Shown: in pieces, positions 9,233 through 12,580 of the stretch | How the letters are laid out: each line of letters starts with the position of its first letter | How positions within the stretch are numbered: position 1 is the first letter of the stretch | NCBI GenBank assembly: GCA_030646295.1 | Contig: JAUSND010000012.1 | Span: 39,723 to 63,722 of the forward strand | DNA length: 24,000 nucleotides | From: Moraxellaceae bacterium | Lineage (GTDB): Bacteria > Pseudomonadota > Gammaproteobacteria > Pseudomonadales > Moraxellaceae | Direction: 5' to 3' | Translations under genes and position numbers: made by a program | The notes under the pieces: generated by a model | The model's input: the letters and a program-made list of their open reading frames with translations, nothing else | The model's database searches: none | What the model was told of the DNA's origin: nothing

Positions 9233-9306
9233 GGGTATCCACCTGATTCCTGCCTATACGTTCGGCACAAATTCTGCCTGCCGCCACGCTGGCCTGTCCA
9301 GCCAAA

Positions 9307-9380
9307 GCGGGCACCGTGCAATGGTACTACCCTAGCTTCCCAAGCTAGAGCCGTGGGTTCGATTCCCATCGCCCGCTCCA
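9307..9380 (+). tRNA. tRNA-Gly(CCC)-like gene with a degenerate 5' third (possible pseudo-tRNA)
   Basis: A 74-nt cloverleaf can be drawn, with anticodon loop ttCCCaa, T-arm gtggg-ttcgatt-cccat and an encoded CCA. Three features look defective: C at position 8, an A7.C66 acceptor mismatch, and a D-stem C13.C22 mismatch plus a G.U pair. The 3' 53 nt are identical to the tRNA at 11766-11839. Confidence 0.5.
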
Positions 9381-9457
9381 CTGTTTTACAAGGGTTTTAA
9401 CCATACAGGCCCCTCGTCCTGAGGGCACTGTTATGACTTTTGTGGCCCCTTCTAGCC
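9328..9457. repeat. left arm of a 130-bp perfect inverted repeat (3' 53 nt of the tRNA plus 77 nt of 3' flank)
   Basis: I checked by hand, base by base, that this arm is the exact reverse complement of 11689-11818. Imperfect similarity continues outward to about 9281 (blocks cgctggc and gtccagcc) and more weakly inward (cgcacaagga at 9496-9505 versus 11667-11676). Confidence 0.92.
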
Positions 9458-9540
9458 ATACTTCCTTTCTTCACCATTTCCCCTAATGAGTTGCTCGCAC
9501 AAGGATTACTAGCGCCGCCATGAAATGTGATTGGAGGAAA

Positions 9541-10518
9541 TCATATGTCCGAAGTCTCGGCGGAAGGAGTTGATGACAATATGTCCCTCTTTAGCCGATC
9601 AACTTCTTTGAAATATTTTCTAAGCAAGCTTGAATAAAACCCAGGATCTACATGCCTGCAATATGCTAAATGACCTAGCAAGGACCTTTTGTCTTCATCC
9701 CGCAAAGAGCCCTTGCAATAAAGACTCAACATTAGTCTTACGTGATCCTTCTGCTTTCGATGAATTGTTACATGGCCATCCTCGCAAACCTTTAAGCCCG
9801 TCACTAAGGCCGAGCCACCAGAACTGCTTCCAATCTTTGTTTTCGATGGATTCAGCGCGAGTCGTGGCGAGCTCATGCTGCTAATGGCCTCGGATACCTC
9901 TTTAAATATCCCACCACATGCACCTTTGGTATTGGTGGAAAAAACAAGATCATCCGCATAGCGTGTGTAAACACACTTTCCGTATTTCCCGGAGCTCACA
10001 ATCAGCTTCGTGATGTGAATGTCAAAATCATTCATTACGATATTGCTGATTACGGGAGAGCTTGGGAAGCCAATGGGAAGGGTGTCATTTTTATAAAAAC
10101 AGGAAAGCCGTATAATCTCTTTTGCACGAGCATCCAACTCCCAGCCAGGGGCCTCTTGCTTATGCCACCTCTCCAAGATACCTATGAAGTCAGCATATTT
10201 AATGCTTGGGAAAAAATCCTTTAGATCCAATTTTAAAAAGAATCTATTGGCGGCATGATTCTTTGCGTTATCTAATATTGATAGCCCCGGGCGATATGCC
10301 GCTGCCGCGGCATGCACGGGAATTTTTGAGAACACATTATAAATTAACCAGTACTGTATGACTTTTAGTTTTTTTGACGGATGAAAGATGTCTCGAATCC
10401 CGCCATTTCTTTTTTTTATCCCAAACTTCTTGACGTCACGCCTAGCGACAAGTATGGCGCTTTTAATCACATCCTCAGTAATCCCAAGGTCCTTGGACAT
10501 TGTATCTTCAATGCGCAT
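9541..10518 (-). CDS. retron-type reverse transcriptase (325 aa)
   Basis: RT motifs occur in order: FGIKKRNGGIRDIFHPSKKLKVIQ, the retron-specific NAKNH (NAxxH), LDLKDFFPSI, LPIGFPSSPVISN, YTRYADDLVFS (YADD), LALNPSKTKI and the retron-specific ALVTGLKV (VTG). Size is typical of retron RTs. GGAG lies 9 nt upstream of the ATG, and the start overlaps the upstream gene by 11 nt. Confidence 0.9.
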   Translation of the reverse strand: MRIEDTMSKDLGITEDVIKSAILVARRDVKKFGIKKRNGGIRDIFHPSKKLKVIQYWLIYNVFSKIPVHAAAAAYRPGLSILDNAKNHAANRFFLKLDLKDFFPSIKYADFIGILERWHKQEAPGWELDARAKEIIRLSCFYKNDTLPIGFPSSPVISNIVMNDFDIHITKLIVSSGKYGKCVYTRYADDLVFSTNTKGACGGIFKEVSEAISSMSSPRLALNPSKTKIGSSSGGSALVTGLKVCEDGHVTIHRKQKDHVRLMLSLYCKGSLRDEDKRSLLGHLAYCRHVDPGFYSSLLRKYFKEVDRLKRDILSSTPSAETSDI

Positions 10519-11422
10519 AAAGGCGCTCCGGATACCCCTTAAGGATGTAATTTCTAAATATTGCCATTAAGTCATGAGAGTCAAATCTGTAATAATAATA
10601 GGTCTTTCCCAGCCTGCTTCTAAAAAGTCCGTTCCCATCTCTCTCGATAGACGCGAATGCAGACAGAATTGCCAAATGCTGCCTTAGCTTGAAATCGCCA
10701 TCTCCAAATATAATTTTTAAAATCTCGATGAGTTCTTTGTATGTGATTGGGCCAGTAAAATACACAAGATCATGAACAAACATTACGGATATTTTTGTGA
10801 ATTTTTGGGATGGATTGCAAGATACTAAATCAATGGGGGATCGCTTCGTTTTGATTGGGTCTTTTAGTAAATTAAAAATTCCCAAGAAGGTGTCGCCTAT
10901 TGCATCAAGGTGATCTACCCCATCAGGGCTCATCTTGTAGTGAATGATTTTATTTTTCCCTGCAGCCTCCTCAATGGCCTGAATGGGGCCTAGGTTGATA
11001 AAGGATTTTGCTGCTTTAAATTTATCATCATTGATTACTATTAGTTTTTTTCTTAAATCGTTATGAGAGAACGCGCCCAACTCCGTGTAAGAGCTCGGGC
11101 TCTCAAGGACGATAATGATATGGTCTGCGAACTGGGTTATTTCATGTTCCACATCAAGAATATTTTCTTTGTGCCCCTCATCTTGAAGGGTGGAAAATAC
11201 TCTCTCCGCGAGAAAGAACTGGGCATACTCTAAATGCGATTTGGAGAACCCAATCAGCGCTTTTCTGCGCTCAGAGATGGTGCCATCTGATTTGTTTGCG
11301 CCACAAAGGAATACAAACTTAGAGACCATTGCGGGAAGGTATACATTGGATCCCGAAACAGCCGCCTTTAGGCTCAATATTCCATCGCGCAATAGTTTCT
11401 TTTTCTTTATTTCATAAAGCAT
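10508..11422 (-). CDS. retron effector candidate: N-terminal nucleoside 2-deoxyribosyltransferase-like (NDT/TIR-like) domain plus C-terminal winged-helix-like domain (304 aa)
   Basis: The N-terminal half shows the NDT-like pattern: FVFLCGA (aa 36-42), then ADHIIIVLESPSSYTELGAF (aa 99-118, acidic residue plus Gly after a beta-strand). The C-terminal part (ITYKELIEILK...LRQHLAILSAFASIERDG) looks like a wHTH. The gene lies directly upstream of the RT and is translationally coupled to it (ATGCGCATTGA overlap), as with rcaT-rrtT in retron Sen2. The call rests on motifs only; no alignment was run. Confidence 0.6.
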   Translation of the reverse strand: MLYEIKKKKLLRDGILSLKAAVSGSNVYLPAMVSKFVFLCGANKSDGTISERRKALIGFSKSHLEYAQFFLAERVFSTLQDEGHKENILDVEHEITQFADHIIIVLESPSSYTELGAFSHNDLRKKLIVINDDKFKAAKSFINLGPIQAIEEAAGKNKIIHYKMSPDGVDHLDAIGDTFLGIFNLLKDPIKTKRSPIDLVSCNPSQKFTKISVMFVHDLVYFTGPITYKELIEILKIIFGDGDFKLRQHLAILSAFASIERDGNGLFRSRLGKTYYYYRFDSHDLMAIFRNYILKGYPERLYAH

Positions 11423-11582
11423 CTTAAAGCTTGCCTACTTAAGCATGCGTTTCTTCCGGACATGGAAGCCGCTGACTAGCGTCTTCCATGTCCGGAAGAA
11501 ACGCTAGAAAGCTAAAAAATTAAGGCAGAATGTGACTCACATCCCGATGGGCTCTCACCCATAATTGCTAGGCAATTTGATA
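11420..11582 (-). ncRNA. candidate retron msr-msd non-coding RNA
   Basis: On the minus strand, a1 TTGCCTA (11575-11569) is followed by G11568 in a uAGc context. Its complement a2 TAGGCAA lies at 11437-11431, and the pairing extends to about 14 bp with two bulges. Between them are two short msr-like hairpins (atggg/cccat and atgtg/cacat). A 58-nt hairpin at 11447-11504 has a 22-bp perfect stem, a 4-bp inner stem and a tetraloop, and no T-run follows it. The boundaries are a model, not measured. Confidence 0.45.
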
Positions 11583-11688
11583 ATACATAATGTTGCCACA
11601 AGGAAGAAGGTACGCCTGAAAGTAATAGCAATTACTTTGCGTGCACCGAGCCGTGCCGCAAGCAATTCCTTGTGCGGAGGGAAACTAG

Positions 11689-11818
11689 GGCTAGAAGGGG
11701 CCACAAAAGTCATAACAGTGCCCTCAGGACGAGGGGCCTGTATGGTTAAAACCCTTGTAAAACAGTGGAGCGGGCGATGGGAATCGAACCCACGGCTCTA
11801 GCTTGGGAAGCTAGGGTA
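11689..11818. repeat. right arm of the 130-bp perfect inverted repeat
   Basis: Exact reverse complement of 9328-9457. Degenerate similarity continues outward to about 11870. Confidence 0.92.
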
Positions 11819-11839
11819 TTACCATTATACGACGCCCGC
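11766..11839 (-). tRNA. tRNA-Gly (anticodon CCC), apparently intact
   Basis: The reverse complement reads gcgggcg-tc-gtat-aatggta-atac-c-ctagc-ttCCCaa-gctag-agcc-gtggg-ttcgatt-cccat-cgcccgc-t-cca. All stems pair, U8 is present and CCA is encoded. The acceptor stem, anticodon loop and T-loop closely match E. coli glyU-type tRNA-Gly(CCC). Confidence 0.9.
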
Positions 11840-11997
11840 TTAGGCTGGACTGATGCCAGCGGGTGCATGGTACGGATTCCGGCGCCGTTCGTCGACCTCC
11901 CCAAACATCTTTAGCCACCCTGCATCCAGATGCCCGCTGGCTCCGTACAGATACTCAGGCAGACAGGAGTTTGCCCCTATCTCCGGAGATCACGCTC

Positions 11998-12580
11998 ATG
12001 ACCATTTTCCACGATTCACTTCACGCCCCACTCCACGCCTCAAAGACCTTGCTGCCCATCGCCCTGCTTATGACACTGGCAGGCTGCCACACCATGGCGC
12101 CTTCCGCCCCGGCCTTCACGCAAGAGTCGCTGCCCGAGGCAGTCAAAGTGCCGGCGGGCCATGCCGTTGCACTGGAAACGGTTGGCGCAGGCGAGATTAC
12201 CTATGAATGCCGAGCCAAGGCCGACAACGCGGCGCTGGCGGACTGGGTGTTTGTTGGCCCGAAGGCCGAGCTGCGCGATCGTCGTGGCCGCCAGATCGGC
12301 ACCTACTTCGGGCCGCCCGCTACCTGCGGCCGCGCAGGATGGCTCCAGCATTACCGGCACCCAGGTGGCAATTGCACCGGCGGGCGCAGGCAACATTCCC
12401 TTCCAGCTGGTCAAGGCCAATGCCTCTGCCAACCCGGGCATGCTGGCCGGCACCGCCTATATCCAGCGCGTGGCGCTGAAAGGGGGCGCGGCACCCGCCA
12501 GTGCATGTTCCACCGCCACTGTGGGCACGCGTGAAACCGTGAACTATCAGGCCGATTACATTTTCTGGAAGGCCAGCTGA
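11998..12580 (+). pseudogene. DUF3455-family lipoprotein gene interrupted by a +1 frameshift near 12325-12333
   Basis: The ATG at 11998 has GGAG upstream, and the lipobox is LLMTLAGC. The first frame reads ...GTYFGPPAT, then becomes nonsense. The homologous continuation QDGSSITGTQVAIAPAGAGNIPFQLVKA...VNYQADYIFWKAS runs in the frame of ORF 12161-12580. One extra base within acctgCggccgcgcag would explain the shift. Confidence 0.7.

Follow-up and report, generated by a model that had tools for sequence, protein, structure and literature searches.

A divergent RcaT-type effector gene of a predicted type II-A retron from a Moraxellaceae bacterium, carried in a cassette bracketed by convergent tRNA-Gly sequences

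We analyzed a 24,000-nucleotide (nt) stretch of contig JAUSND010000012.1 from a Moraxellaceae bacterium, referred to below as the window, and conclude that one gene on its minus strand is very probably that for the RcaT-type effector in a complete retron of type II-A (St85/Sen2 family). The open reading frame (ORF; 10508-11422) starts with ATG and comprises 304 codons. Alignment of homologues from the first residue on (100% coverage) supports this start codon. An initial annotation of this DNA had placed both the ORF and the two motifs that it singled out correctly; by hand count on the translation, FVFLCGA corresponds to amino acids (aa) 36-42 and IIIVLESPSSYTELGAF to aa 102-118. Its description of the protein as rich in Lys, Ile, and Phe also holds (9.2, 9.9, and 6.9%, respectively, with Leu at 10.9%), and the gene has a guanine-plus-cytosine (GC) content of 40.5% vs. 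61.7% for the rest of the window. Coordinates of all features are collected in Table 1.

Family membership is indicated by curated models. The protein scores 192 bits against the NCBIfam equivalog model NF038232, “retron St85 family effector protein” (cut-off 100, E = 1.6e-56), with a match that spans model positions 2-261 of 277, and 156.5 bits against the PADLOC model NDT_II-A (PDLC02928; E = 2.2e-46, aa 26-283). Retron-Eco1 (Ec86) provides the closest solved effector: phmmer aligned aa 26-157 to the Eco1 effector in the PDB (E = 5.9e-17), and a profile search against the Eco1 effector chains gave E = 9e-25. Such scores lie far outside the range of chance, and they support the proposal of the initial annotation that the gene product belongs with the RcaT/Ec86 effectors of type II-A retrons. 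Relatives are numerous. Among 5.8 billion clustered proteins, 239 share sequence words with the effector (best non-self match 65% identical), and many of them carry the name “retron St85 family effector protein”. When 1.84 billion representatives at 50% identity were searched exhaustively with phmmer, 1,356 relatives came up at E <= 0.001 and 75 at E <= 1e-30, nearly all of them about 300 aa long and aligned end to end. The precomputed annotation of all homologues names Pfam family PF28093. By tblastn, phage and plasmid collections yielded distant matches only, at 24-34% identity, from Klebsiella P2-like and Pseudomonas phages and an E. coli plasmid. The RcaT/St85 effector family is large, curated, and structurally characterized, and the present protein is a divergent new member of it. 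Its identity is 20.6% to Sen2 RcaT and 23.2% to an Eco1-like effector, in keeping with the earlier remark that it looked distant from the enterobacterial examples.

The predicted structure leads to the same family. An AlphaFold2 model built from an alignment of 63 close homologues (mean predicted local distance difference test score, pLDDT, 91.3; predicted template-modeling score, pTM, 0.86) has helices at aa 1-23, alternating strands and helices at about aa 26-160, a linker, and a C-terminal unit. When the model was compared with the PDB using Foldseek, the top three matches were all the Eco1 effector (7xjg_J, 8qbk_E, and 8qbl_E; E = 1e-12 to 6e-12, probability 1.00, 308-314 aligned columns), and the next ones, to the N-terminal domain, were nucleoside 2'-deoxyribosyltransferases (NDTs) and DNPH1/Rcl (probability 0.9-0.99). 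There was no TIR protein among the top 50 PDB matches, and a Pfam scan with a library copy that lacks PF28093 returned no family at E <= 1, neither NDT nor TIR. The N-terminal domain had initially been called “NDT/TIR-like”; the first half of that label is upheld by the NDT and DNPH1 matches, while the second has nothing to recommend it beyond the general Rossmann-like class. Of the targets proposed for comparison at that stage, the Eco1 effector structure was recovered, and the Pfam scan gave no match to PF05014 or PF15891 at E <= 1. The N-terminal domain resembles the NDTs, as supposed, at the level of fold.

The same results bear on the idea that the gene has no connection with the retron and that its product is either a nucleoside 2-deoxyribosyltransferase of metabolism or an NADase of the TIR type. 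Such an enzyme would account for the Rossmann-like layout (beta1-Gly, beta4-acidic) and for nothing else; it would not explain the fused winged helix, the overlap with the reverse transcriptase (RT) gene, or the passing of a curated retron-effector model. With the Pfam scan, the NF038232 match, and the Foldseek list all contradicting it, we consider it refuted, with practically no probability left.

To name residues, we compared the protein with Sen2 RcaT, for which the top NF038232 match among the Enterobacteriaceae genomes searched was taken (L071:1453-2415, 320 aa). All 17 residues that the preprint on Sen2 RcaT names are found in this sequence at the stated positions (F28, E85, V106, E107, I155, D169, D173, L215, S216, Y252, S253, S254, K256, K286, Q289, R301, and R307), and it is therefore Sen2 RcaT itself. 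In a MAFFT L-INS-i alignment of 38 effectors from Sen2-like, Eco1-like, and environmental clades, Sen2 F28, E85, E100, and E107 align with F38, E92, E107, and E114 of the present protein. All four columns are invariant, in 38/38 effectors and also in 63/63 close homologues, and the spacing of 22 residues between E92 and E114 equals that in Sen2 and Eco1. The catalytic triad of Sen2 RcaT is F28/E85/E107, and the substitution E107Q abolishes both toxicity and auto-ADP-ribosylation (preprint 10.64898/2026.10.13.758329). For Eco1, the PDB entry titled “inactive effector (E106A)” (8qbl) differs from the wild-type chain only at the position aligned to E114. By homology, E114 is thus the predicted catalytic Glu, with E92 and F38 as its putative partners. 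The initial annotation had left the choice between E107 and E114; the latter is the counterpart of Sen2 E107 and Eco1 E106, and the former, though invariant, lies outside the published triad. Plausibly, E107 is the counterpart of the Asp in Lactobacillus NDT that binds the sugar and comes before the nucleophilic Glu.

As for the substrate, it is conceivable that the NDT-like domain does not act on nicotinamide adenine dinucleotide (NAD+) but has another substrate, such as nucleotides or nucleic-acid bases, on which it would be an N-glycosidase in the manner of DNPH1 and true NDTs. Apart from the Eco1 effector, the structural neighbors are indeed NDTs and the dNMP N-glycosidase DNPH1, and the physiological target of RcaT toxicity is still to be found. 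Both Sen2 and Eco1, however, auto-ADP-ribosylate in an NAD+-dependent manner that requires the equivalent Glu, and PDB 8qbk is an ADP-ribosylated effector, which makes a different substrate improbable in our view.

The C-terminal unit consists of three helices (aa 210-223, 228-239, and 246-255), a beta-hairpin (259-269), and further helices (282-302). When the last 105 aa were modeled separately (AlphaFold2 with an alignment from 25 loci, pLDDT 92.3), this model alone had no PDB match at E <= 0.001. The Foldseek list nevertheless consists almost entirely of winged-helix proteins, each weakly significant (E = 0.03-0.4, probability up to 0.99): MarR-type Rv0880 (probability 0.98), PadR-type Rv0047c (0.99; root-mean-square deviation, rmsd, 2.0 Å over 61 columns), IclR-type BlcR (0.94; rmsd 1.7 Å over 59), ArsR-type BigR, ScpB, cullin WH-B, and ORC. 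Together with the helix-helix-helix-hairpin topology, this list supports, at the level of fold, the C-terminal winged helix suggested initially. Within it H217, D218, R290, and R300 are invariant and K295 nearly so in the 63-sequence alignment.

The partner genes complete the picture of a retron. Immediately downstream of the effector gene lies an RT gene whose product scores 307 bits against NF038233, “retron St85 family RNA-directed DNA polymerase” (cut-off 235), and matches PADLOC RT_II-A (E = 1.6e-93), Pfam RVT_1 (E = 3e-22), and the solved retron RTs in the PDB (E = 1e-40 to 1e-25). The motifs NAxxH, YADD, and VTG are all present in its translation. The effector stop codon (TGA, 10510-10508) falls inside the start region of the RT gene (ATG at 10518), with GGAG located 7 nt upstream of this ATG. 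The overlap noted in the initial annotation is thus present, is 11 nt long, and is conserved across homologous loci: the 11-nt form recurs in at least seven of the closest ones, and 4-14 nt is usual elsewhere. Such an arrangement is consistent with translational coupling.

Upstream of the effector gene, a 145-nt segment is conserved in 13 loci (the window and 12 related ones) amid surroundings that cannot be aligned, and has the features of an msr-msd noncoding RNA (ncRNA). The complementary ends are TTGCCTA (a2, 11575-11569) and TAGGCAA (a1, 11437-11431), both on the minus strand; an invariant TAGC contains the predicted branching G at 11568 and is followed by two msr stem-loops. The msd hairpin (11504-11447, minus strand, 58 nt) has an apical loop, CGCTAGTCAGCG, that is invariant across the 13 loci, and a conserved stem base, GCGTTACTTCC...GGAAGTAACGC (TTCC...GGAA), around a middle that covaries freely. 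In the RNAalifold prediction of 47 pairs, compensatory changes occur at 28. This structure is paired in 95.5% of cells, as against 35-42% with the partners slid, and the observed values were not attained in any of 500 shuffles. Rfam contributed no retron RNA family, only spurious miRNA-precursor matches on both strands of the msd hairpin. Judged from sequence, then, the retron appears complete, with msr-msd RNA, effector, and RT all on the minus strand.

Table 1. Positions in the window of the retron, its parts, and the flanking repeat arms.
Feature	Position	Strand	Evidence
Left arm of flanking inverted repeat, with tRNA-Gly(CCC)-like copy at 9307-9377	9296..9474	+	Rfam, sequence comparison
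Retron reverse transcriptase, 325 aa, St85 family (RT_II-A)	9541..10518	-	NF038233, PADLOC, Pfam, and PDB matches
Overlap of effector stop and RT start, 11 nt, ATGCGCATTGA	10508..10518	-	Kept in homologous loci
Effector gene, RcaT / retron St85 family effector (type II-A NDT effector), 304 aa	10508..11422	-	ORF, NF038232, PADLOC, Foldseek
C-terminal winged-helix domain, putative DNA-binding (about aa 206-304)	10511..10807	-	AlphaFold2 (pLDDT 91-92), Foldseek
NDT-like catalytic domain, about aa 26-160, with a helical segment before it at aa 1-23	10943..11347	-	Alternating strands and helices in AlphaFold2 model, phmmer, NDT/DNPH1 matches
E114 codon (TELGAF), counterpart of Sen2 E107 / Eco1 E106, predicted catalytic Glu	11081..11083	-	Alignments
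E107 codon (LES motif, strand end), counterpart of Sen2 E100 / Eco1 E99	11102..11104	-	Invariant, outside published triad
E92 codon, counterpart of Sen2 E85 / Eco1 E84 (catalytic triad)	11147..11149	-	Alignments
F38 codon, counterpart of Sen2 F28 (catalytic triad)	11309..11311	-	MAFFT map, invariant
msr-msd ncRNA, 145 nt	11431..11575	-	Kept in 13 loci, covariation
Right arm of flanking inverted repeat, with intact tRNA-Gly(CCC) gene at 11766-11839, co-oriented with the retron	11672..11850	-	

A mechanism can be proposed by analogy with Retron-Sen2 and Retron-Eco1, using facts from the preprint cited above. The RT would copy the msd hairpin into multicopy single-stranded DNA (msDNA), and RT and msDNA would bind the effector through its C-terminal winged-helix domain, which would contact the msd stem-loop and the RT N-terminus, so that the NDT-like domain stays inactive in dimeric form. 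If a phage activity then modified or destroyed the msDNA, the effector might be released or activated; it would use NAD+ in N-glycosidic cleavage or ADP-ribosyl transfer and so stop the infected cell (abortive infection). The corresponding chemistry is hydrolysis of NAD+ in Eco1 and auto-ADP-ribosylation in both Sen2 and Eco1 (preprint 10.64898/2026.10.13.758329).

Sen2 RcaT (St85; STM3845 of Salmonella Typhimurium, type II-A) resembles the present system in gene order (msr-msd, effector, RT), in the combination of an NDT-like with a DNA-binding domain, and in the triad, F28/E85/E107 corresponding to F38/E92/E114. Both effectors pass NF038232, the RTs belong to the same NCBIfam family, and the msd hairpin is long in both. 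In Sen2, the C-terminal domain binds the msd stem-loop and the RT, with contacts from RcaT R307 to RT D9 and from RcaT K286 to RT E51 (preprint 10.64898/2026.10.13.758329). The RT N-terminus encoded in the window keeps an acidic residue (D10, then L11) and the last effector helix keeps a basic one at position 295 (Lys or Arg among homologues), and the conservation of RT D10 and effector K295 fits a retained contact like that between Sen2 R307 and D9. For the second pair (D284/K50 here), there was no clean charge-swap covariation across 27 loci; only the pair of an acidic RT residue and K/R295 is consistently kept. The two effectors differ in length (320 aa in Sen2 vs. 304 aa here), in the beta-hairpin wing, which is shorter here and lacks Y252-S253-S254, in a Sen2 insertion with R301 that is absent here, and in the msd, which lacks GATC here.

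The Eco1 effector (PDB 7v9x, 7xjg, 8qbk, and 8qbl) is the best full-length structural match, aligns in sequence over the N-terminal domain, and has E106 at the place of E114. It differs in that identity in the structural alignment is about 21-22% and the template-modeling (TM) score is only 0.48-0.55, from which it follows that the two proteins are unlike in domain arrangement or in linker. The gene order of Eco1 is msr-msd, RT, effector; the effector gene precedes that of the RT in the window. NDTs and DNPH1/Rcl, with a PF05014-type fold, share the N-terminal fold, in which the catalytic Glu (predicted, in the present protein) follows strand 4 and an aromatic residue follows strand 1. They differ in the absence of a sequence-profile match, in the N-terminal helix and winged-helix domain that the present protein adds, and in its retron setting and inferred role in defense.

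We also built a quick maximum-likelihood tree, in which branches are long and deep nodes weak. The protein falls within a large clade from environmental Gamma- and Betaproteobacteria, and the Sen2 group sits on another long branch. The only strongly supported deep split is a branch of 4.04 (Shimodaira-Hasegawa-like approximate likelihood ratio test, SH-aLRT, 99) that sets the Eco1-like pair apart, with the present protein on the Sen2 side. The known RcaT clades behave differently: those of Sen2, Eco9, Eco10, Vvu1, and Hin1 form toxic tetramers, whereas the clade of Eco1, Eco3, Vch3, Cle1, and Bth2 is dimeric and non-toxic and still defends (preprint 10.64898/2026.10.13.758329). The tree gave no confident placement of the protein in either of these published types.

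Within the same family assignment, a sub-variant of the mechanism above is that the effector works as in Eco1, being dimeric, non-toxic alone, and active only within RT-msDNA filaments, as an NAD+ hydrolase or by auto-ADP-ribosylation, with no releasable toxin. We regard this as a serious possibility, though less likely than not. That a whole RcaT clade defends as non-toxic dimers lends it credit, as does the fact that S253 and R301 of the Sen2 dimer-dimer interface have no counterpart here. On the other hand, interface residues D169 and D173 of Sen2 are retained as D173 and D177, and the protein lies on the Sen2 side of the one well-supported split. The missing residues are themselves weak evidence, because interface sequence conservation is low even among the tetramer formers (preprint 10.64898/2026.10.13.758329).

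Several observations weigh against assigning the gene to an RcaT-type effector of a complete type II-A retron. Identity to the two characterized effectors is about 21-23%, and the relationship to NDTs is one of fold only, with no Pfam NDT match. There is no counterpart of Y252, S253, and S254 of the Sen2 wing or of R301, the residues responsible in Sen2 for reading GATC and for the interface between dimers. The msd stem contains neither GATC nor CCWGG, and since the msd has no GATC, Dam sensing of the Sen2 kind is unlikely here. The trigger, the choice between toxic tetramer and non-toxic dimer, and the target of ADP-ribosylation cannot be transferred from Sen2 or Eco1. Lastly, a scan for sigma-70 promoters upstream of msr on the minus strand gave no convincing site.

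The msd of this copy does carry other double-stranded palindromes (CCGG, CATG, and TCCGGA); a conserved methylation palindrome was sought in the msd stems of relatives, and none is held in common. The msd features (invariant loop, conserved base, no GATC) may point to a sensing surface unlike that of Sen2. As to expression, about 100 nt separate the repeat arm from the start of msr (11583-11700, minus strand), and the retron is co-oriented with, and directly downstream of, an intact tRNA-Gly gene. Because no convincing sigma-70 promoter lies just upstream of msr, transcription may depend on read-through from the tRNA.

That no clear promoter of its own was found could also be a sign of decay or silence, the gene being a leftover, now without function, of a cassette gained by horizontal transfer. 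The foreign, low-GC character of the island and the failure to find NF038232 in any of the 18 congeneric genomes searched would agree with this. Yet the ORF is full length and retains every column that is invariant in the 63 homologues, neither the RT motifs nor the 47-pair ncRNA structure shows damage, and the coupling overlap is preserved, so that we consider a remnant very unlikely and retain the assignment to an RcaT-type effector.

The retron sits in a low-GC cassette of 2.2 kb flanked by convergent tRNA-Gly(CCC) sequences, which make up an inverted repeat of 179 nt. Between the tRNA anticodon arm and a point about 97 nt into the island, the two arms of this repeat match perfectly. The left tRNA copy (plus strand) scores 40 bits with Rfam and was missed by ARAGORN; its differences from the intact gene are confined to the 5' third (acceptor and D-arm), and no change occurs from the anticodon arm on. 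No integrase was found in the tRNA-Gly-bracketed cassettes. Homologous retrons elsewhere are seldom near a tRNA gene (6 of 46 loci have one within 3 kb, none of them tRNA-Gly), and a literature search for a defense hotspot between inverted tRNAs brought up nothing relevant.

In congeners the same convergent tRNA-Gly bracket holds other low-GC cargo, with a different system in each. The cargo comprises an AriA/OLD-like ATPase in L016, RmrT/RmrA with a ShosT-like protein in L017, PDC-M68A/B in L018 (where the right flank is syntenic with the hisB/hisH side of the window), an OLD/GajA-like nuclease with an unknown protein in L019, and an E1-like set in L023. The remaining loci are partly assembled: L021 has PDC-M11A/B and one tRNA-Gly copy on its contig, and L020 and L022 encode unknown proteins. 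The inner arm sequence is common to species with different cargo (L016 and L017; L018, L019, and L023), and the bracket is therefore the conserved framework and the cargo what changes.

Further observations were made at these loci. The proteins encoded at L020:937-3442, L022:493-3332, L019:5513-6859, and L017:3076-3651 (191-628 aa) match nothing in Pfam or PADLOC. Their genes lie in the variable region linked to tRNA-Gly, beside or in place of known defense genes, and are candidate defense genes of undescribed kinds. At L023:3407-7680, a set of six genes that includes a GHKL-type ATPase, an E1-like (ThiF) protein, and small partners has weak PADLOC E1-E2 matches only, and may be a defense system based on ubiquitin-like conjugation. 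ARAGORN joins the truncated left copy of L016 (the 3' 48 nt of tRNA-Gly) into a 96-nt “tRNA-Val(TAC)” (L016:2926-3021), which is probably a chimeric pseudo-tRNA at the edge of the bracket. In the window itself, two long ORFs that overlap but differ in frame (11863-12534 and 12161-12580, plus strand) lie just right of the island and could be one frameshifted gene.

With this analysis, a hypothetical-looking AT-rich gene becomes a confidently assigned RcaT-type effector with named residues (F38, E92, and E114), and a divergent, well-aligned subclade is added to the RcaT family, which has been described as the most prevalent retron effector. This subclade is set apart by its shortened wing, the invariant apical loop of the msd, and the conserved stem base around a freely covarying middle. 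Methylation by Dam or Dcm is the phage activity known to be sensed by Sen2, Eco9, and Eco1, and a member that has neither the Sen2 wing residues nor GATC offers a useful comparison for the generality of the model of methylation and tetramerization. The well-defined 145-nt ncRNA could, in addition, be of interest for the engineering of retron editors. The less ordinary part of the finding is the tRNA-Gly-bracketed slot with a different defense system in each congener. More speculatively, and at a probability that we would put low, the environmental RcaT subclade may sense a phage activity other than Dam/Dcm methylation and, separately, an undescribed exchange mechanism at the convergent tRNA-Gly(CCC) bracket may have captured the cassette, in which case the bracket would be a swappable defense slot in this genus.

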